From contig CAYFNF010000001.1 in NCBI GenBank assembly GCA_964344485.1, forward strand, positions 18,335 to 82,334: DNA of 64,000 nt, read 5' to 3'. Below the pieces are notes generated by a model that ran no database searches, had not been told where the DNA came from, and was given only the letters and a program-made list of their open reading frames with translations. This DNA comes from an uncultured Gammaproteobacteria bacterium (GTDB lineage: Bacteria; Patescibacteriota; Patescibacteriia; UBA9570; XYC2-FULL-38-9). Positions 2,570-59,618 of this stretch are shown here, one piece after another. Each line of letters opens with the position of its first letter. Position 1 is the stretch's first letter. A program made the position numbers and the translations under genes.

Positions 2570-3213
2570 AAGAACAAGTTATCATATTTGATTACGATGG
2601 AACCATGGTCGATTCACTAGATCATTTAATTGATCTATATAATCGAGTCGGCCCGTAGTATCGTTGTCGTCCAGTGAATAAAAGCGACGTTCCACGCTTA
2701 CGCAGCATGAAGCCCCAGCAGATCATGAAAGAACTCAAGATTTCTTTTTGGAAGCTACCCATTCTGTTAATGAAGTTTCGTTCTGAGTTTTCCAAAATCA
2801 CAGCAAACATTCAATTCCAGCCCGGCATGAAAGAAGCAATTCAAGCGTTGAATCAAAGTGGATATACATTAGCTATTGTGACTACTAACTCTGCAGCAAA
2901 TGTGGCGAAGTATCTAGAGCAGCACGATATGAAGGATATGTTCGTAGGGGCATATTCAAGCAAACGGTCTTATCAAAAAGATGGCGTGCTTGCTCAAGTA
3001 CTGCAGCAGCATCAATGGGCACCTGAACAGGTTATTTATGTCGGTGATGAGGTACGTGACATTGAAGCATCAAAGAGAATTGGTATTCGCTCAATTGCTG
3101 TGGGTTGGGGGTATAGCTCTCGCGATGCATTGCTAGAGCAGGAACCGGACCACTACGTGGAGTCTGCAGAGCAGCTGTTGAAAGCACTGCGTATATATGA
3201 AATTGTGATTTAA
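2566..3213 (+). pseudogene. HAD-superfamily phosphatase (PGP-like) interrupted by an in-frame TAG at 2656-2658; the ORF track only calls the downstream part (2674..3213)
   Basis: HAD motif I (FDYDGT) is encoded at 2566-2655 in the same frame as the downstream ORF, which carries HAD motifs II-IV (IVTTNS..., K..., YVGDEVRDIEA). The two parts are separated only by the TAG. Confidence 0.6.
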
Positions 3214-4096: not shown

Positions 4097-5025
4097 TGAC
4101 AAAAGGAAATATTATTGATGTCCATCAGTTTACTCAACAGGAATGGACATCGCTTATTCAACGCGCAGTTGAGTGTAAGGAAGATAAAGATCAATACAAG
4201 CAAGTACTTTCGGGGAAGCGCGTGGGTTTAGTATTTGATTCTAACTCACTGCGTACCAAGATTTCGTTTGAAACCGCAGCATATCTGTTAGGAGCAGATA
4301 GTTACTTTGTCTCTGTTGATACCGTAACTCAAGAGCGTGACGGCACACCACGAGAGATCTATGAAGACATCATTGAAACCCTGGATCGTATGGTGGACTG
4401 CTATGTGTTGCGTGATTACTCTCGAAAGCTTTACGATGTGTTTATTCGAAAAGAATATCCGCCGTTTATTAACGGACTCTGTGAAGTCGGCCATCCCAGT
4501 CAAGCACTGGCAGACCTTGGAGTACTGCAATGGAAAAAGAAGAAAGTAGAAGGATTGAACTATGCTGGAGTGTGTCCAGTAACCGGGAGCGGCGTGATAG
4601 AGTCCTATGTCTATGGAGTGTTGTTGTTGGGAGAAAATGTGACACTAATTACCCCTACCGGAGAGTTTGCAGGAAAGAACAAGGATTTTGACGAGCAGGT
4701 AAAGCGATTATCAAAAGAGCACGGTGGAACGTTATCAGTAACCAAAGATATCGCTAGCACCGTTGCTGCTGCGGATGTGTTGTATGTTGATGAGTGGTGG
4801 GAGAATGACCCGGATTTTCTGAAAAAGAAAATGGGAGAGTATAAGGTAGATAGTACATTTTTGCAGGGAAGTAAAAAAGACCTGTCTGTCTTGCATTGCC
4901 TGCCTGCACATCACGGAAGGGAGATTGAGAGTGATGTGATCTACGGAGACCAATCACTAATATTTGATCAAGCAGAATTCCGCGTCTATTCCGCGATGAG
5001 TCTGCTACTCTATTTATTTGAATAA
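4096..5025 (+). CDS. Carbamoyltransferase of the aspartate/ornithine carbamoyltransferase family; substrate unclear
   Basis: S-L-R-T-K (carbamoyl-phosphate-binding STRTR-like), HPSQ and HCLP motifs in the canonical order. No clear ornithine DxxSMG motif. Confidence 0.7.
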   Translation: MTKGNIIDVHQFTQQEWTSLIQRAVECKEDKDQYKQVLSGKRVGLVFDSNSLRTKISFETAAYLLGADSYFVSVDTVTQERDGTPREIYEDIIETLDRMVDCYVLRDYSRKLYDVFIRKEYPPFINGLCEVGHPSQALADLGVLQWKKKKVEGLNYAGVCPVTGSGVIESYVYGVLLLGENVTLITPTGEFAGKNKDFDEQVKRLSKEHGGTLSVTKDIASTVAAADVLYVDEWWENDPDFLKKKMGEYKVDSTFLQGSKKDLSVLHCLPAHHGREIESDVIYGDQSLIFDQAEFRVYSAMSLLLYLFE

Positions 5026-5029
5026 TATA

Positions 5030-5935
5030 CTACGCAGCCTGAGCCGTGATGCCGGCATCAGATCCTGTATCATGCCTGCGGCTAGAGCTAAGTTCACGTT
5101 CTACTGCTTCTCGTGCTTCACGTTGGATTTGGGCAAGCGCTACCCTACCTTCAGAAGTAGTATGGTACCAGCTTTGGCCTAAGTCCCAGAGCGATTCTGA
5201 CTCTCTCATCTGAACTGCAGGATCTAGTTTTTCCCCGACCAGGCGCTCTACCACAGGGAGTGCAGCAGCTGGATCCTCAAACGGTCTGCATTCGTGAATC
5301 GCCTCTGCGACTGCATAGACCGTACCGAGCTCTTGCTCTGGCATGCGCAGCCCTTCTTGGACGTGGTCGAATGCTAGATGTTCACCGTCTCCTAACTCTC
5401 TGACTTCAGCGAGCAGCACTTGAATTTCGCTTTCATGAGAACCGATCAGGTCCGGCAATCCAGCAACCCGTTGTTCGAAGTACGCACGAGACCTTCGCAT
5501 GGCTTCATCTCGAACTCGTGTTTCTACTATAGCATCGATCATTTCAGGGCTTGGGGCTTTTGCGGTATGCTCTCTTGCTTCTTGTACATGTAAAAGAAAA
5601 CCCTGTTCATCTCTTGTGACAGTCCACTCTCTCCCGTCATTTGCATGTCCAGTCACAGAGTCGCCTGCCTGCATTGCTTGAATTTCATTCACTTGACTTG
5701 CGCTCATTGCAATACCGCGGTCTACTTGCATCTCCTGGACTAAGCCATCTACTGTTTGATGAGCGATATGTTCTTTGCTTGTCGCACCAGCTTCCTCGAG
5801 CGGTTCTTGGTCATCTGGCTCTTGCCGCGCGAGACGCTCAGTAGTTGGTGATAGATCTGCTGACGCATCACCTCGGATCATATTTCCTCCAGTTCCAGCG
5901 TCGGAAAAACGTTGTCGTTCTGCAGCTGTGCTCAT
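5030..5935 (-). CDS. Hypothetical acidic protein
   Basis: Long ORF with consistent coding look and slightly elevated GC versus neighbours. No recognisable motifs. Confidence 0.4.
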   Translation of the reverse strand: MSTAAERQRFSDAGTGGNMIRGDASADLSPTTERLARQEPDDQEPLEEAGATSKEHIAHQTVDGLVQEMQVDRGIAMSASQVNEIQAMQAGDSVTGHANDGREWTVTRDEQGFLLHVQEAREHTAKAPSPEMIDAIVETRVRDEAMRRSRAYFEQRVAGLPDLIGSHESEIQVLLAEVRELGDGEHLAFDHVQEGLRMPEQELGTVYAVAEAIHECRPFEDPAAALPVVERLVGEKLDPAVQMRESESLWDLGQSWYHTTSEGRVALAQIQREAREAVERELSSSRRHDTGSDAGITAQAA

Positions 5936-7657: not shown

Positions 7658-7814
7658 AATTTGTCTAATATTAGCGAAATAATTGTAAAAACAACCCATC
7701 GCAGGTTGATTTTTTATCTTTTTTTTGATATATATTGATGCGGCAAATCGCACGCAGTGCGGTTTTGTCGTCAGAAGGAGTGGATGCGCAAAATGCAGAT
7801 GAGGAGGCAGAACC

Positions 7815-8300
7815 ATGCCACGTAGCGCAACACAGGAAACCCATGGTGTAGTCCCCGTCGTCCCACGTCGCGGGACACCCCCGTCCGACCACGAGGTCGC
7901 GGCGTTCACCCTGGCCAGCAAGCCGGAGACGGTTCCGCTGATCATCCGGAACGTGGTCCAGTACGGTACGGGCGCCACGCCCGTGACCAACACGGACATC
8001 CACCGCCTGCGCCGCGCCGGGCTCGCCCGTCGCAACCGCATGGGCTTCAAGGTGGTCCGGGTCTCGGACACGGTGTTCGACGTTCTGGTCTTCGGCTGTT
8101 CCGCCAAGGGGCGGGGCTGGACCCGCAGGCAGGTCGACGAGTGGGCTCGCAACATGCAGGAGGTCCTGCACGCGATCGCGGACTTCACCGCGGTACGCGA
8201 TGTTCGCATCGAAGACTGGGACCGCACGGTTCAGGTCCCGGGCCGCGGGATGCGGCTCTACACCGTCGCCACCAGCAAGATCACCATCAGGGTCTCCTGA
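7815..8300 (+). CDS. Hypothetical protein encoded by a high-GC (foreign-looking) island
   Basis: Strong SD GAGGAGG 7 nt upstream of the ATG. GC by eye ~65-70% versus ~43% in the flanks. A GC-rich hairpin plus T8 terminator lies immediately downstream. The overlapping minus-strand ORFs look like high-GC artefacts. Confidence 0.5.
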   Translation: MPRSATQETHGVVPVVPRRGTPPSDHEVAAFTLASKPETVPLIIRNVVQYGTGATPVTNTDIHRLRRAGLARRNRMGFKVVRVSDTVFDVLVFGCSAKGRGWTRRQVDEWARNMQEVLHAIADFTAVRDVRIEDWDRTVQVPGRGMRLYTVATSKITIRVS

Positions 8301-49869: not shown

Positions 49870-50508
49870 TTAGAATTTACGGATGATGCCCACTACTTTC
49901 CCTTGAATCACAACGTTTTTTACTTTTATCGGCGGGTACTTTTTATTTCGTGGTTGTAACCGAATATATGTTTTCTCTTTATGAAACTCTTTCAACGTTG
50001 CAGAGCCGTCTTCCAGGAGCGCGACGACAATATCTCCGTCATTTGCCATGTCTTTCTTTTCTACTACTACAAAGTCGCCGTCATCTATAAAGCTTTCGAT
50101 CATTGAGTCTCCTTTGACCTTTAATACATAGCAGTCCGGACGTTGTGCTAGTTCGCGGGGCACGGTGAGCATTTGAGTGCGGTCTTCCACTGCTTCAATT
50201 GGAGCACCAGCAGTAATTAACCCTGCAATAGGGAGCTGTACTGAAGAACCTTCTATAAAGACATCTTCTGCTGTTGATCCGTCTGATAATGTACTCTCTT
50301 TTGTATTGATAATCTCTATATCTCTTCCGTCACGTTTAATAAACCCGTGTTTTTCCAGATAGCCCAAGTGCTCATGGACGGTTGCTGGAGATGATAGTTT
50401 AAACTTTTTAGCTATATCACGCAGAGTAGGGGCGTATCCACGATCTTGAATATACTCCTTTAAATACTCCAAGATCTTCTGTTTTTTCTTTGGAAGCATT
50501 GTAGGCAT
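49870..50508 (-). CDS. lexA: LexA repressor (S24 peptidase)
   Basis: N-terminal wHTH (LRDIAKKFKLSSPATVHEHL), AG cleavage site, GDSM Ser and downstream Lys of the S24 fold. Confidence 0.9.
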   Translation of the reverse strand: MPTMLPKKKQKILEYLKEYIQDRGYAPTLRDIAKKFKLSSPATVHEHLGYLEKHGFIKRDGRDIEIINTKESTLSDGSTAEDVFIEGSSVQLPIAGLITAGAPIEAVEDRTQMLTVPRELAQRPDCYVLKVKGDSMIESFIDDGDFVVVEKKDMANDGDIVVALLEDGSATLKEFHKEKTYIRLQPRNKKYPPIKVKNVVIQGKVVGIIRKF

Positions 50509-50544
50509 ATATTTCAGGGTTAATAGTGATTATATACACCGTAC

Positions 50545-50600
50545 CCGAACAAAACCCGAATGTCAAATATCACCTGTGGATAACCGAATAAAACCCGAAT
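50545..50600. promoter_or_regulatory. Two copies of a GAAC/GAAT-N7-GAAT direct-repeat motif (CCGAAyAAAACCCGAAT) upstream of lexA; candidate LexA operator
   Basis: Read directly. It resembles, in reverse complement, the alphaproteobacterial GTTC-N7-GTTC LexA box. Confidence 0.3.
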
Positions 50601-50799
50601 AAGTATTGACTTCCGTGCAGTTGCGTAATAACGTGACAGTCTGAGAAATCAGATTAGGTCCAACAATTTGTATCCTCTTCTCCACTATAGCTGAAAGTAG
50701 AAGTGCGTAACTCCTATTTTCAACTGTATTGGATGGACGGAACAACGAGAATGGCCCAAGAACGGACGGGCCAGTGACGCCTCGGAGGAGGGCGACAAC

Positions 50800-51249
50800 A
50801 TGATTGTGAGACCGAGTGACGAGTACGTGGGAGACGCCTACGTCTTCCAGGTGGACGGGCAGTGGTTCGAGGCCCTGCCGTTCGTCAAGCCGGACGACAA
50901 GGGTCCGGACGACCGCCAGAGCGTGGACGGCCGCACCATGCTGGAGCGCGTGCCCGTGAGCGATGCCCAGGGCACCAAGGCGCAGGGCCAGCTGTGCATG
51001 GAGCACCAGCTCGACATGAGCGTGCTCACGCACAAGCCGCTGGGCCAGCGCGGGATGACCGTGACCGGTGTCGTGCACCTGGTGTTCGCGAACTGGGAGG
51101 CACAGCCCATCGTGGACGGGCTCACCGAGCTGTTCTACGACGCCGGGCAGTGGAGGCCGGGCAGCATGAGTCTGGGTAGCCAGTTCTTCGCGCACCACCG
51201 AGTGGTCCGCCCCTGCGACCCGCCGCCCGAGGCCGGTGACGCGAGCTGA
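50800..51249 (+). CDS. Hypothetical protein, high-GC island gene
   Basis: SD GGAGGAGG 8 nt upstream; abrupt GC increase at ~50740. The minus-strand ORF 50563..51198 crosses the GC boundary and is rejected. Confidence 0.4.
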   Translation: MIVRPSDEYVGDAYVFQVDGQWFEALPFVKPDDKGPDDRQSVDGRTMLERVPVSDAQGTKAQGQLCMEHQLDMSVLTHKPLGQRGMTVTGVVHLVFANWEAQPIVDGLTELFYDAGQWRPGSMSLGSQFFAHHRVVRPCDPPPEAGDAS

Positions 51250-51486
51250 GGCACTGGACCTCTTTTTTTATTTTCATACTTTGTAGGATATGTTTCTAAG
51301 CGCTTAACAGCACAGAAAAAGCTGAAAAATCGCATTAATGTAATCTTCGTCATTTCTTTAAAAAAAGAGCGGTTTTTCTATTGACAACATATGCACAGAA
51401 ATGTCTTGACATATACTATTCCTCTACTACTATGGGTATCACGCACGCAGATCCTCTGGACATGGAGGTGGAAGGGAGTGTGCATT

Positions 51487-52890
51487 ATGTCGAAAACCGC
51501 GTTGGTTTTCGGAGGTGTTGGCTTGGTGGGCGGAGAGGTCATCCGCCTGCTGGCCAGTCAGTTCAACCTGAGCATCGTGGTCTGCGATCGCAGGCCACCC
51601 GAGGAGGAGATCGACGGCGTGGTCTACGTGACCGGTGACCACGTCAACGTGTTCAGTCGTTCGTTCGTGGACGACATGATCGCGCAGCACGCCCCGGCCC
51701 TGATCGTGGACGCGGTCAACATCGCGAGCATCGCGAGCCGGAGCGGCGACCTGGAACAGATGGTCCGCGCCTACTGCTTCAACGTGATTCGGCCCACGAT
51801 CCGGCGTGGCATCACATGGATCGACATCGGCACGGTCGCGACCGGCGGCCTGGGCCTCGAGATCCCGTACACCCACAACGAGGAGTCCGACGGTGGGATC
51901 GCCCCCGGGCTGATCCTCAAGAACGAGGCGGCCGAGATCCACGGCGGGTTCCTGGACCTGTTCGGTCGTACACCCGGCATGCGCGTGGGACGCGTGATCC
52001 CCAGGGGCATGATCGGCTTCGAGACGCCGACGTTCGGCGCCATGACCGTGGCGCACCTGAACGGCACCCCGACGCGCTACCGCAGCATCCGCGTGGACGT
52101 GGCCGACGCGCAGGCCGTGACGTTCGTGCCCCTGGGCGAGTACCAGGACGTGGGTGTCCGGTGCGGTGAGAACGGCCAGTTCGGGGTCGAGGAGACCATC
52201 GCGATCACCGCGATCGGCCAGATGGAATCCGTGACCGCGCAGGCCGTGGCCCGTGGGTGCGGCCGTGTCTACGGCTGTCTGCTCTCGGGTGCCGGCGAGT
52301 ACGTGCAGTGCAACATCGACCCGGACCTGACGTCCTTCGCCGCGCGCAACCGCGTGATCAAGCGCATGAACGACCTGTCCGGTCGGCACCGCGTGCACAG
52401 CATCGCGTTCGGCAACCTGGGCCCGTACATCACGTGCGACCTGTGGGAGCTCCACGTGCTGGCGCGTCACGGCTTCACGCCGCAGAACCTGGCCGAGTTC
52501 GAGGGCGCGGTCCTGTGGCAGGACGAAGTCATCGAGGAGATGGCCACCTGGCTCCCGGGCCTGGGCATTCCCATCGCCATGGACGGGCATCTGTACCCCG
52601 CGTTCCAGGGCGAGGTCGAGCTGAGCCGCGACGACGTGGCCGAGCAGATCCAGGCCGTGACCACGGGCAACGAGCCCAAGCTGTGGTACGTGGACCTGCG
52701 CACCGAGCGCGTGCTCCACTGGGCCAGGATCGCGAGACAGATCCAGCAGGCCGATCCGGAGGACTACCCCCGGAGCCACCTGCCGCTTTCCGCGGGCAAG
52801 CTGGTCCGCCCCGGTTCCTTCTGGGCCGCGTACCAGACCGTGACCGGGCACAGCCGCAACGCGTACAGCGAAGGCGCGCGCTACGTCTAG
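51487..52890 (+). CDS. NAD(P)-binding Rossmann-fold protein (saccharopine-dehydrogenase-like N-terminus), high-GC island gene
   Basis: ALVFGGVGLVGGEV GxGxxG at the N-terminus; SD GGAGGTGGAAGGGAG upstream; AT-rich spacer with TTGACA boxes upstream; hairpin plus T7 terminator at 52924-52956. Confidence 0.5.
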   Translation: MSKTALVFGGVGLVGGEVIRLLASQFNLSIVVCDRRPPEEEIDGVVYVTGDHVNVFSRSFVDDMIAQHAPALIVDAVNIASIASRSGDLEQMVRAYCFNVIRPTIRRGITWIDIGTVATGGLGLEIPYTHNEESDGGIAPGLILKNEAAEIHGGFLDLFGRTPGMRVGRVIPRGMIGFETPTFGAMTVAHLNGTPTRYRSIRVDVADAQAVTFVPLGEYQDVGVRCGENGQFGVEETIAITAIGQMESVTAQAVARGCGRVYGCLLSGAGEYVQCNIDPDLTSFAARNRVIKRMNDLSGRHRVHSIAFGNLGPYITCDLWELHVLARHGFTPQNLAEFEGAVLWQDEVIEEMATWLPGLGIPIAMDGHLYPAFQGEVELSRDDVAEQIQAVTTGNEPKLWYVDLRTERVLHWARIARQIQQADPEDYPRSHLPLSAGKLVRPGSFWAAYQTVTGHSRNAYSEGARYV

Positions 52891-52923
52891 GCAGGACACG
52901 TCCTGCACGGGCGTGACCAACAA

Positions 52924-52956
52924 CCTCATGGGATGAGGAGCCTACGAGGTTTTTTT
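52924..52956 (+). terminator. Intrinsic terminator CCTCAT-GGG-ATGAGG followed by T7
   Basis: Read directly, downstream of the island gene stop. Confidence 0.5.
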
Positions 52957-53072
52957 AATTCCGTAATATTTCGCTCTGAATAGCGAAAAAATGCGGTTTC
53001 CGCAGCTTTAGCACGCAAAAAGTAGCAATTACTGCGACGCAGGGAAAGCGTGATTTTCCACCTGTAGAACTT

Positions 53073-53101
53073 GACATTTCAAGCTTTTTTTTATACGATT
53101 G
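53073..53101 (+). promoter_or_regulatory. Promoter-like TTGACA-N17-TACGAT in the AT-rich spacer ahead of a high-GC gene; a 7-bp hairpin ACTCGCC..GGCGAGT lies in the leader
   Basis: Read directly. Confidence 0.35.
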
Positions 53102-53188
53102 GTTACTCGCCCTGGAATAATGGCGAGTCCAAACTGGGGAACGATCAACGTATCGACGATAGTATATTCCACCAGACGGGAGAAGGTA

Positions 53189-53604
53189 TGCTGGCACCTG
53201 ACGCAGCAGACCACGTCCGACAAAGCGCATTCATGCGCTACCTGAGCCGCCTCATGATGCTGCGCGGCATCGGGGCGTCGGACCTCACCGATCGACTGAT
53301 GGTGGCCGATGACGGCCCCACGGTCCAACGCGCAGCGCAAGACCAGCTCTTGCTCAAGTCCACGACAGCGCTTCCGCGAGACGTGGTGCGCAGCCTGCCG
53401 GCCGAGGAGCACATCCAGGACATGCTCGACAACGCCGAGCTTCTGGAGGCCATCCACGACCTGGCGCAGGCAGCAGCACGCAGTGCGGTACAGGCAACTG
53501 GACACGACGTGGACTGGGTCCAGATCCTGAACGTGGACCTGGCGACGAGCTTCGCGGTCGCGCGGCGACTGTTCGGTGATGCCCGCATGGAGGGCAGAGC
53601 CTGA
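53189..53604 (+). CDS. Hypothetical small protein (possible regulator), high-GC island gene
   Basis: SD GGGAGAAGG before the ATG at 53189; high GC. Confidence 0.35.
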
Positions 53605-53681
53605 CCTGATCGGACGGTCAACTGCAACCCACACCTGAGGCCGAAGAGAGAGACGACCATCAGGCTTTTTTATACCCAAAT

Positions 53682-53708
53682 AAAAAAAGCGGCACGAAGC
53701 CGCTTTTA
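53682..53708. terminator. Bidirectional intrinsic terminator GCGGC-ACGAA-GCCGC between an A7 and a T4 run
   Basis: Perfect 5-bp GC stem flanked by A and T runs. Confidence 0.6.
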
Positions 53709-53718
53709 TGTATATCAC

Positions 53719-54198
53719 TTATTCAGTACAGCCGTCAGTATCGATACAGTTATCAATGATATGTACCATGTCAGTTGTATAGTCGTCTTTCCACTTGTCT
53801 AGATTATCTGCCTCTCCATAGATACCGAGGTCAATTAAGTTTTCTTCGCGATCATTTTCCACTGTATCTCTCATGTCGTTTACTTTGTTCTCTGCAATTT
53901 CTTCTGCGCGTTCATCAACATGAACATTGAACTGCCCCTCGTCAAAATATGCTGAAGGACCGAGTACAGCGTCAGGATTTGTTTCTAGATATTCTTTTAT
54001 TTGTTCATCTACAAGTGCATTTAGTTTAGCTTTATTTATGCCCGTGCCAGCATAAGATTGTTGTGACATCATGAAGAATGCTGCCGCACTTCCTCCAACT
54101 AAAATCACTGCGGCTGCAACCGCGACACCGATTTTAGTTTTAGTTCGTGTTACCGTGGTGGTTTGTTCCATGTTTTTATGGTTACGTATTTGTTTCAA
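53719..54198 (-). CDS. Membrane-anchored hypothetical protein (host-like composition)
   Basis: N-terminal TM helix; acidic C-terminal domain. Confidence 0.4.
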   Translation of the reverse strand: MKQIRNHKNMEQTTTVTRTKTKIGVAVAAAVILVGGSAAAFFMMSQQSYAGTGINKAKLNALVDEQIKEYLETNPDAVLGPSAYFDEGQFNVHVDERAEEIAENKVNDMRDTVENDREENLIDLGIYGEADNLDKWKDDYTTDMVHIIDNCIDTDGCTE

Positions 54199-54347
54199 TT
54201 ATATACCTTTGAGCATAGAATACAAATGCGACTGGCTACATTGTTGATAACTGTTTATTAGTTATTCGAATAAAAAAAAGAGGTGCGTGCTCCTCCGGCA
54301 ATCAAACCTCTAGCCCCTGTGCAACGGGCTTGGGTCTACGCCGTGGA

Positions 54348-55679
54348 TCAGCTGTCCTCGGACCCGCTGTCCTGCAGGTAGGTGCGCTCGACGTAGAAGA
54401 AGCGCGACACCGCGATGTAGGCCAGGGCCATGACGACCATGAAGGCCGCGAAGAACAGGTAGTACGTCGGACCGCTCATGTTCGTCAGCGTCTCGCTGGA
54501 GCTGATGACCCAGTTCACCGCGGCGGTGAACAGGTTGCCCAGCGCGATTGCGACGCAGAACAGTCCGAAGACCAGGCTCTTCAGCTTGGGCGGTGCCTGG
54601 GTGTAGAAGAACTCCAGGGCGGTGCCGTAGGTCAGCGTTTCGCCGATGGACAGGATCAGCCAGGCGAGCATCTGCCACTTGAGGTTGAGCACCACGTCGG
54701 CGTCCAGCTGCGACTGGATCCAGGCCGCGAGCACGAACGAGCCGGCCGCGAAGAACAGGCCGGTGCCGATCTTGCGGATCGCGGTGAACTCCACGACGTG
54801 GTTGATCCACTTGTAGACCCAGCGGTTGAAGACGAACACCAGCACGATGATCATCACCGGGTTCACCATCGGGACCTGCGCCGGGAGCCACTTGAAGCCC
54901 AGGAAGTGCAGGTCCATCTCCTTGGCCTGCAGCACCCAGCGCGACGCGCCCTGGTCGTAGAGGCTGAAGAACCCCGTGATGAAGACGAGCAGCATGGAGA
55001 TGCGTGCCAGCACCACGAGGGTCTCGCGGGTGAAGACCTCGCGGCGGAAGGACGGCCAGTCCGGCGGGGTGTGGTTGTAGTGGTGCCGCCCCAGCCAGAA
55101 GATGAAGATGGCCACGAGCATCAGCACCGCCGGGATGCCGAACGCCACGCGCGGACCGAACCACTCCAGCATGAACGGGCTGATCACCGAGGAGAGGAAC
55201 CCCCCGGCCTGGATGCCCATGTAGAAGTAGCTGATGCCCTTGTCCAGCAGGCTGGCGTTCTCCTTGCTGTACAGGTCGCCGACCATGGCGACCATGCAGG
55301 GCTTGATGCCGCCCGAGCCGAGCGCGATCAGGCCCAGGCCCAGGTACAGGCCGAGCCGCGTCTGGTCCATCGCCAGGACGATGCAGCCCGCGGCGTAGAC
55401 CAGGGAGAGGCTGAGCACGGTCTTGTATTTCCCGATCAGCAGGTCCGCCAGGAAGCTGCCCAGCAGCGGGCAGAAGTAGTTGGCGAACGCGAACAGGTGG
55501 AACACCACCGCGGACTCTTCCTCGCTCATGGGTGAGAGCACACCGGCCCGGTTCACGATGTAGTCGGTCATGTAGACCACGAGGATCGACCTCATCGCGT
55601 AGTAGGTGTAGCGCTCTGCTGCTTCGTTGCCGACCAGGAACTTCAGTCCCGGCGGCATTCTCGTTTTGTTGGTTGTCAT
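54348..55679 (-). CDS. POT/PTR2-family proton-dependent di/tripeptide transporter, high-GC island gene
   Basis: GGIKPC, FYMGIQAGGF and a 12-14 TM layout typical of DtpT-like POT transporters. SD GGAGAG upstream (minus strand). GC by eye ~65%. Confidence 0.75.
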   Translation of the reverse strand: MTTNKTRMPPGLKFLVGNEAAERYTYYAMRSILVVYMTDYIVNRAGVLSPMSEEESAVVFHLFAFANYFCPLLGSFLADLLIGKYKTVLSLSLVYAAGCIVLAMDQTRLGLYLGLGLIALGSGGIKPCMVAMVGDLYSKENASLLDKGISYFYMGIQAGGFLSSVISPFMLEWFGPRVAFGIPAVLMLVAIFIFWLGRHHYNHTPPDWPSFRREVFTRETLVVLARISMLLVFITGFFSLYDQGASRWVLQAKEMDLHFLGFKWLPAQVPMVNPVMIIVLVFVFNRWVYKWINHVVEFTAIRKIGTGLFFAAGSFVLAAWIQSQLDADVVLNLKWQMLAWLILSIGETLTYGTALEFFYTQAPPKLKSLVFGLFCVAIALGNLFTAAVNWVISSSETLTNMSGPTYYLFFAAFMVVMALAYIAVSRFFYVERTYLQDSGSEDS

Positions 55680-55876
55680 CCCAACTCTCCTTTCCCTTGT
55701 GATTCACGTATCTGCACGTAATCACCGGACGTGGGGTGTAGAACGTTGTTGCTTTCCTCCGAAGCAAGTCCTTATCAAGGAACTCACTGCTAGAAAGCAG
55801 CTTGCACAGGCAGTCATTGAAGCAGAATTCGAGCTAATCCGTCAAGTTTTTACTAGTAAAATGATTAATATAAAAT

Positions 55877-55897
55877 CCCCGGAGAAATCCGGGGATT
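55877..55897 (-). terminator. Intrinsic terminator CCCCGGA-GAAA-TCCGGGG followed by a T-rich tract on the minus strand (downstream of the M23 gene)
   Basis: Perfect 7-bp stem with a GAAA tetraloop. Confidence 0.6.
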
Positions 55898-55901
55898 GAA
55901 G

Positions 55902-56399
55902 TTATGGTAGTGTGACAAATTGTAAAGGATTCACGAAGTGCTTTTTTTTCTTAATCATGAAGTGTAGATGTGGTCCAGTGCTTCTATACGATCCTTTGGT
56001 ACCTGGCTTGCCACCGCTCAAAGCAATAAGTTGTCCAGCAGTAACTCTATCGCCTTTTTTTACATAGACTTTGTTGAGTTGCGCGTAGACAGATTTGTAT
56101 TTCTTATTGTGCTTGATGACAATACGTGCAGGCCGTTTTTTATGACGCTTCTTTGGCTTGTTCACCTTAATCACTTTCCCATCTGCTGCTGCATACACTT
56201 CACTTTTTTGTGGAATTGCTAGGTCGATCCCTTTATGATTACGAAAAGGGTATCCGATCATGAAGCCAAATGGTTGAGTGAGAAAAGCTTCTTCTTGAAT
56301 GGGCGCCTCCCATTCAATCGCTGCGTCTGCGTGATTCGGTAGAATCACAATTGATAGAACGAATAGTGCTACGAATAACACTAATGGTTTTTTTAACAT
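55902..56399 (-). CDS. M23-family metallopeptidase (LytM-like)
   Basis: Signal peptide; HKGIDLAIP ... GPHLHF motifs. Confidence 0.8.
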   Translation of the reverse strand: MLKKPLVLFVALFVLSIVILPNHADAAIEWEAPIQEEAFLTQPFGFMIGYPFRNHKGIDLAIPQKSEVYAAADGKVIKVNKPKKRHKKRPARIVIKHNKKYKSVYAQLNKVYVKKGDRVTAGQLIALSGGKPGTKGSYRSTGPHLHFMIKKKKHFVNPLQFVTLP

Positions 56400-56625
56400 A
56401 TAAGATGTTAATGGATTAGTTAGATTGTCAAAGTGCGAAACGCATCATGATACGCAGTGAACAAGGCTAGCATAGATAGCTAAAACCGCAACACTAGAAT
56501 TATGTGGATAATCAGAACAAGATTACCCTTGTATTTACTATGTCACTGGTCGATTTTGGAAAAAAGGGCTCGGATCAGAAAGGGTGTTTTTTTTCGTTTC
56601 AATGAGCGTATACTTGAAAGCGACC

Positions 56626-56654
56626 TTGCAAAAAAGCAAAAAAAATGGTAAAAT
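56626..56654 (+). promoter_or_regulatory. Promoter TTGCAA-N17-TAAAAT with a TGn extended -10, giving a leaderless mRNA for the S8 protease
   Basis: The -10 ends 6 nt before the ATG at 56661; no SD. Confidence 0.5.
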
Positions 56655-56660
56655 GCTTGT

Positions 56661-59618
56661 ATGAAACAAATACAAATCCGTGCTTTTTTTGTATGGACTC
56701 CTCAGCGAGTAATCACAAGTGTCGCGGCACTCGTACTGCTCGTTTTTATAATTTCATCGGTTTCTAGTACTGCACAAACCGCAGAGACGCCAAGCACTGA
56801 CGTTCCTGTCACGCCAACAGCCATTGAACAAGTAGAAGATGAGTTAATCGTGAAGTACACCGAAGGAAGCGAGCCAGAGAGTAGTGCGAACCAGCATGCT
56901 GGCCTGTCCATCGCCTCAATAGATCAAGAACAGACTCAAGAGATAGGAAACACTGGATATTGGAAGCAGCAAGTTCCAGAAGGCCAAACGGTTGAACAAG
57001 CAATCGAAGAGTTAGAACAAGATCCAACCGTAGAGTCTGCAGAACCAAATAGAATTCGCCGCATGACCGTTACCCCGGACGATACCTACCTCTCCCTTCA
57101 ATTACATTTACTGGATGCTGCAGGCGGTATCGATGCATATGATGCTTGGGACATCGGCACAGGTTCTTCGGATGTCGTTGTAGCAGTTATTGACACTGGA
57201 GTAGACACGGACCATGAAGATCTTGCTGCTAATATGTGGACCAACACCGGCGAGATCGCGAGTAACGGTATAGATGACGACGGAAACGGGTATGTAGATG
57301 ATGTGTATGGATATGACTTTGTAGATGATGACAACGATCCAAATCCATCACCGAACGGTTTGGATGATGATGACTACGGAGGTGCGGACACTGGAATTAC
57401 GCACGGAACCCATGTAGCTGGTATTGTTGCTGCAGTTGGAAACAACACCACTGGTGTTACGGGTGTAGCGTGGACTGCTTCTATTATGGCGCTGCAAGTA
57501 TTAGATGATGAAGGGATTGGTGCAGACGCTGATATCTCTGAAGCAGTAGAGTACGCAGCTGACAACGGCGCTGACATCATTCAAATGAGTCTCGGCGGAT
57601 ATGGTTCTACTTCGGTCCTTGAAGACGCTATTGAGTACGCTGCAGGCAAGGGCGTTCCAATTATCGCTGCTACTGGAAACGACGGAATAAATATCAATAA
57701 CGATCCGTTCTACCCTGCGTGTTATGATGACGTGCTCGGAGTTGCTTCTGTTGATGCAAATGATGCCGCGTCATACTTTACCAATTACGGAACGAACTGT
57801 GCGGACTTGAGTGCACCAGGAGAGTTTGTTCTCTCTACACTGTATACTGATGATGCAACGTACGGATTCACTACAGACTATGACTACATGTCTGGAACTT
57901 CCATGGCAACACCGAGTGTAAGTGGCGTAGCTGCATTAATCCTTGGTCAAGATGACACCATTGAACGAGATGACCTGTACAGCATTATTACATCCACCAC
58001 CGAAGACGTTGGGCTAGCAGCAAAATACGGAAGCGGACGTTTAGACGCAGAAGCTGCATTGCTCGGCATGGACATCGCTTCGTATCCATCTACTCCAGGA
58101 AATCTACAAGCATACGGCGGCTCCAGCAAAGGCACGGAATACGAAGACGGAGATCGTACAACTGACACCACGCCGTACTTTACTTGGGATGCTTCAACTG
58201 ACGATGTTGCAGTGACTGGGTACTATGTCTATTTTGGAACAGATAATGCTGCTGATCCGGAAACCGCAGGAACGCTCCAAACTGAACGAACGTATGAGCC
58301 AACCGTGAGCGAAGGGAATGAAGTGTCGTACCACTTGCGCATAAAAGCAACGGACGATGAGGGAAACACATCACTCACTGCTGCGTCGTTTGAGTATATT
58401 GTTGACACCACGGTCACAAAACCGAAAAAAGTAACAGCCACTAGAACATCTAATGGAGTGAAAGTCACATGGAAAAAAGTCACGGGCGAGCATGTAAATA
58501 AATATAAAGTGTTGCGCAAGAATCTTTCAAAGAAGAAGGGGAAGTATAAAGTGATCAAGTCCCTAAAGAGCAGCAAGACGCAGTATATTGATAAAAGCGT
58601 GAAGCCGAATAAAACGTATCGATACAAGGTACGTGCAGTCGATGACTTAAAGAACAAGAAAGTCTCTAAGAATAAGAAGGTGACGTTCTACCCACGTGAT
58701 CGTTTGGTCGTTACTGCAGGAGACGGCGGCGGCCCAGTAGTTGGAATTTATAACGTCAAGACCAAGGAATGGGAGCAAGCGTGGTATGCGTTTAAGAAGA
58801 GCAGCTACTTCGGGTTGGAAGTTGCAGTTGGGAACTTTGATAAGGACTCTAAAGATGAAATAGTCACAGCACCAACCAGCGGTAGCTCAAAAGTACGCAT
58901 CCTTGAAGCAGGCGGTAAAAAGAAGAAGACATTTTATGCATATGGGAAGGATTTCACCGGAGGCGTCCGAGTTGCAGCTGGAGACGTGGATAATGACGGA
59001 GTAGATGAGATTATCACTGCACCAGGACCAGGAGGCGGACCGCATATAAAAGTATTTGAAAAGAACGGCAAGCTAAAATGGGACTGGATGGCGCTGGACG
59101 GTGCATTCACTGGCGGTGCGTTTGTCACTGCAGTGAATTGGGATGGAAAAGGCCGTGATGAAATTGCAGTCTCTGCTGGTGAAGGTGGCGGCCCAACAGT
59201 CTATATCTACAACCCCAAAACCGGTGCACGCATTACATCCTTTACTCCATACGCGTCAGAGTTTACCGGAGGCGTCCGAGTTGCAACATCACGCTTAAAG
59301 AACGAGACCAAAGAAGCAGTAGTGACTGTTCCGGAGTCTGGTGCTACTCAAGTGCAGAAATATAAGAAAAAAGGAAGCTCAGCAAAGAAGGTAAACGGCG
59401 GTTTCTACGCATTTGTTCAGACGTATACTGAAGGTGGAATTGTTGCTGCAGGTGATTTGTATCAAAAGAATAAGGATAACTTGATGATCGGCAGTAACGG
59501 AGTGCGCATGTCTACTGTCCAGATCTATAATAATACTGGAAAGACTTTAAAAAAGACGCTCTATCCATTTGGGTCGTACTACGGAGCAGTGCACGTAGCG
59601 TCTGGGTGGGTCTACTAA
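56661..59618 (+). CDS. Subtilisin-like (S8) serine protease with Fn3-like and FG-GAP/VCBS repeat C-terminal region
   Basis: Catalytic triad motifs (VAVIDTGVD, HGTHVAG, GTSMATP); signal anchor; repeated GDVDNDGVDEIITAPGPGGGP units. Confidence 0.85.
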   Translation: MKQIQIRAFFVWTPQRVITSVAALVLLVFIISSVSSTAQTAETPSTDVPVTPTAIEQVEDELIVKYTEGSEPESSANQHAGLSIASIDQEQTQEIGNTGYWKQQVPEGQTVEQAIEELEQDPTVESAEPNRIRRMTVTPDDTYLSLQLHLLDAAGGIDAYDAWDIGTGSSDVVVAVIDTGVDTDHEDLAANMWTNTGEIASNGIDDDGNGYVDDVYGYDFVDDDNDPNPSPNGLDDDDYGGADTGITHGTHVAGIVAAVGNNTTGVTGVAWTASIMALQVLDDEGIGADADISEAVEYAADNGADIIQMSLGGYGSTSVLEDAIEYAAGKGVPIIAATGNDGININNDPFYPACYDDVLGVASVDANDAASYFTNYGTNCADLSAPGEFVLSTLYTDDATYGFTTDYDYMSGTSMATPSVSGVAALILGQDDTIERDDLYSIITSTTEDVGLAAKYGSGRLDAEAALLGMDIASYPSTPGNLQAYGGSSKGTEYEDGDRTTDTTPYFTWDASTDDVAVTGYYVYFGTDNAADPETAGTLQTERTYEPTVSEGNEVSYHLRIKATDDEGNTSLTAASFEYIVDTTVTKPKKVTATRTSNGVKVTWKKVTGEHVNKYKVLRKNLSKKKGKYKVIKSLKSSKTQYIDKSVKPNKTYRYKVRAVDDLKNKKVSKNKKVTFYPRDRLVVTAGDGGGPVVGIYNVKTKEWEQAWYAFKKSSYFGLEVAVGNFDKDSKDEIVTAPTSGSSKVRILEAGGKKKKTFYAYGKDFTGGVRVAAGDVDNDGVDEIITAPGPGGGPHIKVFEKNGKLKWDWMALDGAFTGGAFVTAVNWDGKGRDEIAVSAGEGGGPTVYIYNPKTGARITSFTPYASEFTGGVRVATSRLKNETKEAVVTVPESGATQVQKYKKKGSSAKKVNGGFYAFVQTYTEGGIVAAGDLYQKNKDNLMIGSNGVRMSTVQIYNNTGKTLKKTLYPFGSYYGAVHVASGWVY

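Follow-up and report, generated by a model that had tools for sequence, protein, structure and literature searches.

Transporters of the POT (PTR2) family work by alternating access and take up di- and tripeptides together with protons; many bacterial members carry two additional helices, HA and HB, which are typical without being a defining property of the family. Candidate phyla radiation bacteria (CPR, Patescibacteria) are believed to rely on other cells for their amino acids, and the supply routes and the partners are mostly obscure. We analysed a POT gene on the minus strand of a stretch of 64,000 nucleotides (nt) of DNA (contig CAYFNF010000001.1, assembly GCA_964344485.1; the window), which we assign from protein identities to Candidatus Kerfeldbacteria, a CPR lineage. 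We judge it likely that this apparently intact importer gene was acquired horizontally, and very recently, from an unsampled organism or element with a guanine-plus-cytosine (GC) content of ~68-75%. Two kinds of described DNA come closest to this locus. Phage morons are added DNA whose GC content is unlike that of its surroundings and which, having its own promoter and terminator, forms an independent transcription unit (PMC3594210). For groundwater Patescibacteria, genomic islands are described and so are transfers of single genes into CPR, often encoding transporters and mostly from unrecovered donors; the transfers of that study are 4-35% diverged from an identified partner (PMC12455944). 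Transporters of the POT family, and genes that CPR took up horizontally, are already known kinds. What goes beyond routine is the extreme, unameliorated contrast in composition of the POT gene, the piecemeal, moron-like architecture of single-gene units outside any prophage, and the finding that two genes of the region have nearest relatives which, in other low-GC or CPR contigs, are likewise single genes of elevated GC, the GC-rich source being unsampled.

The first-pass annotation had described a minus-strand POT/PTR2 permease at this position, and the open reading frame (ORF) is present as follows.

54348..55679, minus strand: coding sequence of a POT/PTR2 peptide:H+ symporter; ATG start, 443 amino acids, 12 transmembrane (TM) helices, no HA/HB insert, GC 0.633, GC at third codon positions (GC3) 0.957

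The 443-residue protein scores 215.7 bits (cut-off 27, E=1.3e-63) with the PTR2/POT profile PF00854 and 144.7 bits with the NCBIfam model TIGR00924 for oligopeptide:H+ symporters, whose curated cut-off is 130.2 bits; it also matches the Pfam model MFS_1 (81.9 bits). The closest solved structure is PepTSo of Shewanella oneidensis (2xut, E=2e-75), followed by PepTXc (6ei3, 2e-69) and then by mammalian PepT2 and PepT1. Shared with PepTSo (2xut/4uvm) and PepTXc, which are also the best matches in fold, are its ExxER motif, the TM4 lysine of GGIKP and the TM10 glutamate of 'GEvL'. The predicted GGIKPC motif was found at residues 123-128; its lysine, K126, and the TM10 glutamate E347 ('IGETL') align to 'GGIKPL' and 'FGEVL' of PepTSo, while the ExxER motif of TM1 reads E19-A-A-E22-R23-Y-T-Y-Y27, with the F of ExxERFxYY replaced by Y. 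Residues E19, E22, R23, Y27, Y68, K126 and E347 are invariant in the POT alignment. Residues 207-225 stand opposite residues 208-299 of PepTSo, which we take to be the HA/HB insert between TM6 and TM7; the window protein is ~73 residues shorter there than PepTSo and PepTXc and has 12 TM helices like SLC15 proteins. Because residues 207-225 replace the HA/HB segment of PepTSo, the window POT is, as judged from the alignment, a minimal 12-helix form. The same segment is missing from all its ~450-residue relatives in the alignment, and 450-residue proteins annotated as 'POT family MFS transporter' in metagenome-assembled genomes (MAGs) of Polyangiales, Pirellulales, Opitutus and Verrucomicrobiota share this short architecture at 45-49% identity over their full length. 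An AlphaFold2 model built on an 11-sequence alignment (pLDDT 85, pTM 0.83) was compared with the PDB using Foldseek, and its top 50 matches are all POT/SLC15/NPF proteins with TM-scores of 0.70-0.85. The family assignment was thereby upheld, and of the 12-14 helices estimated earlier, 12 agree with both the PepTSo alignment and the model and 14 do not.

The gene looks intact and functional, and its family membership suggests di/tripeptide:H+ uptake. Its subclade has variants of both PTR2 signatures, namely ERYTYYAM instead of the ERFSFYGM of PepTSo and PepTXc (residues 22-29) and FYMxIQxGG instead of FYFxINxG (residues 152-159). Because both signatures are altered, the substrate preference of the subclade may differ from that of typical POTs.

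The composition of the gene sets it apart from the DNA around it. Its GC content, put at about 65% by eye in the first-pass annotation, is 63.3% (0.552, 0.390 and 0.957 at first, second and third codon positions). The 57 host ORFs within the window, used as the host reference, have a GC content of 0.439±0.021 and a GC3 of 0.424±0.048, with a maximum GC3 of 0.56, which gives the POT gene z-scores of 9.3 (GC) and 11 (GC3); the suggested codon comparison thus bears out a compositionally foreign gene. As a control, the gene-minus-flank difference in GC at 32 unrelated metagenome POT loci ranges from -0.06 to +0.05, against +0.19 for the window POT. These POT loci, sampled from JGI metagenomes (38-47% identity), stay within ±0.06 of their own genome, unlike the window POT and its subclade. 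The spacers beside the gene are AT-rich (0.44-0.45 GC), and the signals around it, read in the direction of transcription, are these.

55874..55897, minus strand: intrinsic terminator with a 10-bp stem, belonging to the M23 peptidase gene upstream; it insulates the POT unit
55816..55845, minus strand: putative sigma70-like promoter of POT, read from the sequence and below the scan criteria; -35 TTGACG at 55840-55845, 18-nt spacer, -10 TTCAAT at 55816-55821
55685..55692, minus strand: Shine-Dalgarno site AAGGAGAG, read from the sequence, 5 nt before the ATG; it contains GGAGAG at 55685-55690
54272..54347, minus strand: GC-rich 3' untranslated region (UTR) of POT with a terminator-like end, a weak hairpin of 4-5 bp at 54280-54296 followed by T8 at 54272-54279; GC change-point at 54281

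The GGAGAG site, the AT-rich flanks and the terminator-like hairpins had all been noted beforehand and were located here, the hairpin at 55874-55897 proving to be the terminator of the M23 gene. The implied 5' UTR is ~130 nt long (55680-55809) with ~50% GC. The fold of this leader is not significant (z=-1.6), and an Rfam scan of the window returned no match, hence no riboswitch in the 130-nt leader. The POT gene appears to be a self-contained transcription unit whose promoter use and expression are predicted.

The host and the insertion site were defined from the neighbouring genes. LexA, encoded next to the region, shares 72% and 64% identity with proteins from two MAGs of Candidatus Kerfeldbacteria, and the gene order around lexA is conserved with them. 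From these proteins the host is assigned to Candidatus Kerfeldbacteria (Patescibacteria/CPR), in agreement with the reduced-genome organism anticipated in the first-pass annotation. The chromosomal surroundings comprise ATP-grasp and Mur ligases, LytR, a PD-(D/E)XK nuclease, lexA, an S8 subtilase, a Na/Ca exchanger and MgtC, and no phage gene was seen among the ORFs of the neighbourhood. The limits of the site are as follows.

49870..50508, minus strand: lexA, conserved left flank of the variable region
50608..56590: variable region of ~6.0 kb, with the lexA operator region on one side and the S8 protease promoter on the other, defined relative to the Kerfeldbacteria locus L005
56661..59618, plus strand: S8 subtilase with fn3 and FG-GAP domains, conserved right flank

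The lexA and S8 genes of L005 adjoin each other in divergent orientation, ~155 bp apart, and the intergenic DNA aligns to the window up to ~50607 (lexA operator-like repeats) and resumes at ~56590 (S8 promoter). Because it aligns only on both sides, ~6.0 kb of the window is extra DNA. A second Kerfeldbacteria locus, L004, carries a different cargo at the same lexA|S8 site. The POT gene is therefore missing from the syntenic site in both relatives, as the foreign-gene reading would have it, and the lexA-S8 gap is a hot spot for accessory genes. The cargo of L004 (8141-9729) consists of a 215-residue cysteine-rich ORF and a 234-residue, highly acidic, low-complexity ORF reaching 0.74 GC. Just upstream of lexA in the window lie the direct repeats TACCCGAACAAAACCCGAAT (50542-50561) and TAACCGAATAAAACCCGAAT (50581-50600), which are conserved in L005 and are probably the Kerfeldbacteria LexA (SOS) operator; a 149-residue high-GC gene starts right beside them.

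The first-pass annotation had pictured one high-GC island. The GC profile and change-point analysis instead resolved four separate high-GC single genes (149 residues, 467 residues, 138 residues and POT), with which two low-GC genes are interleaved, and a fifth unit of the same kind stands alone elsewhere in the window.

50800..51249, plus strand: high-GC unit, 149-residue ORFan, GC3 0.913, hairpin + U7 terminator
51406-51433: promoter-like site of the 467-residue unit, TTGACA-16-TACTAT
51487..52890, plus strand: high-GC unit, 467-residue protein with a Rossmann (Epimerase-like) N-terminus and a C-terminal PF27054 domain, GC3 0.919
53071-53099: promoter-like site of the 138-residue unit, TTGACA-17-TACGAT
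53188..53604, plus strand: high-GC unit, 138-residue protein, no family match, GC3 0.784
53719..54198, minus strand: low-GC (0.40) gene for a 159-residue predicted membrane-anchored protein, between high-GC units
55902..56399, minus strand: low-GC M23 peptidase gene, within the variable region
7706-7734: promoter-like site of the 161-residue unit, TTGATT-17-TATATA
7815..8300, plus strand: fifth high-GC unit, 161-residue ORFan, GC3 0.858, hairpin + U8 ending at ~8358

GC alternates between 0.38 and 0.70 gene by gene across the region. The spacers (0.38-0.48 GC) are unrelated to one another and unique within the window; they cannot be eroded donor DNA, because the synonymous sites of the high-GC genes are still 78-96% GC. 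Since high-GC single genes and low-GC genes are separated by unique AT-rich spacers, the region was filled piecemeal and is not one island that arrived as such. Nor is POT its only gene with an assignable function, as had been stated: its 467-residue neighbour has Rossmann and PF27054 domains, and the region also holds the M23 peptidase. The 149- and 161-residue genes are ORFans by database search, the sole match of the latter being itself on an ENA contig, and the 161-residue unit is an insertion flanked by a CDP-alcohol phosphatidyltransferase gene and a low-GC gene of 173 residues.

The high-GC units share their layout. A Shine-Dalgarno site precedes each of the genes, and all five units end with a hairpin followed directly by U6-8, the GC-rich stretch stopping at the T-tract. 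Consensus-like -35/-10 pairs occur in the AT-rich DNA just upstream, for two units by scan and for one more by eye (8 promoter-like sites observed in the scan against 3.8±2.0 expected). The GC change-points on the 5' side fall between -48 and +23 nt around the start codons, with 5' UTRs of ~50% GC. These units resemble phage morons in their clear GC contrast and may do so in having promoters and terminators of their own, as the hairpin + U6-8 ends and the promoter-like sites would suggest, the promoter of POT being only a predicted one; they differ from morons in lying in the chromosome, with lexA, Mur ligases and ATP-grasp nearby, and in having neither phage genes nor matches to phage DNA or protein. 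The PADLOC defence-system and PHROG scans of the island proteins gave nothing meaningful, and a tblastn search of phages with the three small high-GC proteins gave no match. Integron cassettes were considered and rejected: the spacers share only the T-tract and contain no attC-like repeat, and the units have putative promoters of their own and occur in either orientation. No intI is present among the ORFs flanking the region (LexA, PD-(D/E)XK nuclease, S8 protease, M23 peptidase), and no shared boundary element, attC-like or resembling a terminal inverted repeat, was found, the upstream spacers being unrelated and the downstream ones sharing only the T-tract.

That the entire segment is missing from L005 and contains accessory and ORFan genes would also be expected if all 6 kb had arrived at once as a degraded mobile element (an integrative and conjugative element, a prophage remnant or a transposon). 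Such an origin is very improbable given the gene-by-gene alternation of GC, the two host-like low-GC genes enclosed, and the fifth unit of identical style standing alone at 7.8 kb. The segment has no integrase, phage or conjugation genes and no terminal repeats, a tRNA scan of the window found no tRNA and so no tRNA integration site, and in none of the fetched relatives are the island genes linked.

So sharp a change in composition could also arise in assembly or binning, by stitching GC-rich reads of another organism into a CPR contig. We therefore looked at the junctions in other assemblies. Window positions 55346-56983 are matched at 99.9-100% and 53276-54651 at 100% identity by short ENA contigs from two PRJEB17505 runs. 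Together, these contigs cross both POT junctions and one junction of the 138-residue gene; low-to-high GC boundaries are thus bridged, with 99.9-100% identity, by three short contigs stemming from two runs. The 161-residue unit is also present on a separate, fourth ENA contig. By exact-protein look-up, POT, LexA and the 467-residue protein are without a record, and the contigs were retrieved only by the M23 peptidase and a 150-residue form of the low-GC ORF. Both junctions, for which read-level validation had been proposed, are thus spanned at contig level. The short contigs all end inside GC-rich genes (53276, 54651, 55346, 55384), a feature that an artefact would share and that suggests a drop of coverage in GC-rich DNA or strain-level presence and absence. 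That several assemblies should reproduce one and the same chimera, and do so at gene boundaries, is very unlikely. With some ten alternations of GC at gene boundaries, units that have host-type terminator tails (TTTTTTTATT) and ribosome-binding sites, and the same pattern in unrelated Logan and JGI datasets, we find an artefact scarcely credible.

The proteins themselves point to the kind of genome from which these genes came. The soluble island proteins contain 0.7-2.7% lysine and 5-13% arginine, against 6.3% and 4.2% in the host, and because they are arginine-rich and lysine-poor, they evolved in a GC-rich background and are no mere local effect on codons. Among the metagenome loci, POTs with a GC3 of 0.93-0.95 occur in contigs of 68-75% GC. 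The donor accordingly had a GC content of ~68-75%, and too little time has passed since the transfer for amelioration to show. The first-pass annotation had looked to the transporter, through BLASTP and phylogeny, as a handle on the donor, a hope that the searches disappointed. Among 5.8 billion proteins, the best matches from named organisms (Polyangiales, Pirellulales, Opitutus, Verrucomicrobiota), which are non-CPR, have 45-49% identity, and a scan of JGI metagenomes yielded only POT relatives of 29-50% identity, which served as the GC control and gave no donor. The published transfers into groundwater Patescibacteria include identified partners (PMC12455944), whereas the window POT has no partner in the databases searched and its contrast is extreme (GC3 0.96 against 0.42).

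Only six proteins (P0001-P0006, 56-61%) exceed 51% identity to the window POT, and together with it they form one clade (neighbour-joining bootstrap 100/100). DNA was fetched for four of the six, and each of these has its POT as a single gene of elevated GC (GC 0.53-0.58, GC3 0.69-0.81) in a low-GC contig whose other genes have a GC3 of 0.27-0.43. The closest homologues thus lie in low-GC contigs, a situation that the first-pass annotation had named as speaking against transfer if their GC were similar. That second part does not apply: because the homologues deviate from their own genomes, and because arginine far exceeds lysine in the soluble island proteins, they do not refute a transfer. 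Four-fold sites have reached saturation between the window POT and these relatives (30-42% identity). For the two closest relatives (L084 and L166), the polarised changes are 26 GC->AT against 6 AT->GC, a count obtained by parsimony, which is biased towards GC->AT when the outgroup is GC-rich, and consistent with erosion of these genes towards AT. The simplest reading as to the number of entries would be at least two separate ones from an unsampled GC-rich reservoir, one very recent (the window) and one or more older (the relatives).

These data also bear on whether POT might be a native Kerfeldbacteria gene whose high GC3 is kept locally by selection or biased gene conversion. The GC elevation does persist in all examined members of the subclade despite their old divergence; yet the relatives show net GC->AT decay and not maintenance, the gene is not at the syntenic site in the two related genomes, and four unrelated neighbouring genes share the bias together with a GC-rich amino-acid composition. 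We regard a native gene as extremely unlikely.

In three of the relatives, the POT gene is bracketed by a conserved inverted repeat of 15-16 nt, TGACAAGCAGTTAGA / TCTAACTGCTTGTCA, with arms ~1540 nt apart.

L084:990-1004 and 2553-2567: inverted-repeat arms around the POT gene
L166:1441-1455 and 3001-3015: inverted-repeat arms around the POT gene
L167:655-670 and 2207-2222: inverted-repeat arms around the POT gene

The left arm overlaps a TTGACA -35 box, and inside the right arm there is a conserved 3' UTR of ~110 nt with multiple hairpins. L084 and L167 are homologous only as far as the arms, and the neighbouring genes differ. The bracketed POT of these relatives looks like a mobile or regulated module. 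Their 15-nt inverted repeat was not found in the window, single matches to it in viral contigs look like chance, and the untranslated regions of the window POT have no homology to those of the relatives. A 13/16 inverted repeat around the window POT (54316-54331 / 55795-55810) was rejected, since other chance pairs in the region are as good. Beside the POT of another relative, L085:3669-5038 holds a DNA methyltransferase, a XerC-like integrase and a small GC-elevated ORF (4628-5038, GC3 0.70), which hints that GC-elevated units cluster near recombinases in some genomes.

The second island family that could be followed is that of the 467-residue protein, which has only 26 detectable homologues; a PDB search with this protein found no relative, and a literature search on PF27054 found nothing. 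A homologue of 51% identity is encoded on contig L169 by a gene of 0.62 GC, the neighbours of which are mostly 0.32-0.49 GC. The contig was verified as Patescibacteria from its genes, and its RNase III and QueH cluster at 90% identity with Patescibacteria and Uhrbacteria proteins of NCBI. L169:1-15656 (JGI Ga0265296_1000568) is a gene-by-gene patchwork of GC from 0.32 to 0.62. Phosphonate metabolism is suggested by its genes for an HMGL-like protein, a PEP mutase and an aminotransferase, and next to the PF27054 gene is one for an M19 dipeptidase.

Since all the closer POT relatives lie in low-GC contigs, and the 51% homologue of the 467-residue protein is likewise a GC-elevated single gene, here in a Patescibacteria contig, the immediate source of the window POT might be another Patescibacterium or a CPR mobile element, with GC-rich single-gene cassettes circulating within CPR. 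The POT module of L084, L166 and L167, bracketed by an inverted repeat in different neighbourhoods, would fit such circulation, and in a published survey other Patescibacteria are named as the source of 83% of the transfers detected into Patescibacteria (PMC12455944). For the module of the relatives this spread is plausible; it fits the window copy poorly, because a GC3 of 0.957 together with saturated four-fold sites leaves that copy almost no divergence time in a low-GC genome, and because it has neither the inverted repeat of the relatives nor untranslated regions homologous to theirs. As the immediate source of the window POT, we hold it to be unlikely.

We therefore favour direct and very recent acquisition from a GC-rich source, for which the family, fold and composition of the gene, its junctions, the empty site and the subclade context are the observed basis. 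The POT gene would have been transferred from a GC-rich organism or element into the Kerfeldbacteria chromosome, landing in the accessory-DNA hot spot between lexA and the S8 protease gene. It appears to sit there as a unit of its own, made up of an AT-rich promoter-like region, a 5' UTR of ~130 nt, the ribosome-binding site AAGGAGAG, the coding sequence and a hairpin with a U-tract. The hot spot would have been filled piecemeal with the four high-GC units and two low-GC genes between unique AT-rich spacers, and the GC-rich reservoir would have delivered the POT subclade at least twice, its other members eroding towards AT. The likely benefit would be the uptake of small peptides by an organism presumably unable to make most amino acids.

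Several points weigh against this reading. Firstly, no donor was found, GC-rich contexts giving nothing closer than ~50% among the 5.8 billion proteins; the island DNA has no plasmid match, 24 kb of DNA has no phage match, and viral contigs contain no POT. Secondly, marks of mobility are missing in and beside the region (integrase, transposase, flanking or terminal repeats, tRNA). Thirdly, the four POT-subclade contigs are without confirmed taxonomy, L169 alone among the contigs of relatives being tied to Patescibacteria, and the parsimony bias given above affects the evidence for erosion. Fourthly, the junction-spanning contigs may not be fully independent, as they could stem from the same reads as the assembly of the window. 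Finally, the POT promoter lies under the scan threshold and the hairpin of its terminator is weak (4-5 bp), and expression and proton coupling of the transporter in a CPR cell are predictions.

The boundaries of the units allow a bolder proposal, that CPR of this group may take up foreign genes in the shape of transcripts (5' UTR, a single coding sequence, 3' UTR, and terminator hairpin to U-tract), and not as random pieces of DNA, from a very GC-rich partner, possibly the host cell on which they live, and that these units are installed behind AT-rich promoters. Suggestive in this respect are the five units out of five that end exactly at the T-tract of a terminator and begin near the expected start of transcription, the AT-rich unique DNA between units, and the recurrence of two unrelated island families as GC-elevated single genes. 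An RNA-mediated (reverse-transcriptase) route or a dedicated cassette-installing mechanism would explain the pattern. The proposal is built solely on coincidences of boundaries, with change-points scattered from -48 to +23 nt and an ambiguous 5' UTR composition of ~50% GC, and we regard it as a long shot.

Because GC-elevated single-gene units recur in other low-GC or CPR contigs, curation pipelines that discard GC-elevated segments as contamination may remove real accessory genes. The near-untouched GC-rich signature of the window POT and its neighbours is a compositional fingerprint; comparing it with GC-rich genomes that co-occur could point to the donor, and perhaps also to the Kerfeldbacterium's host. 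A freshly acquired, apparently intact peptide importer is a concrete candidate for an amino-acid supply line of CPR bacteria.

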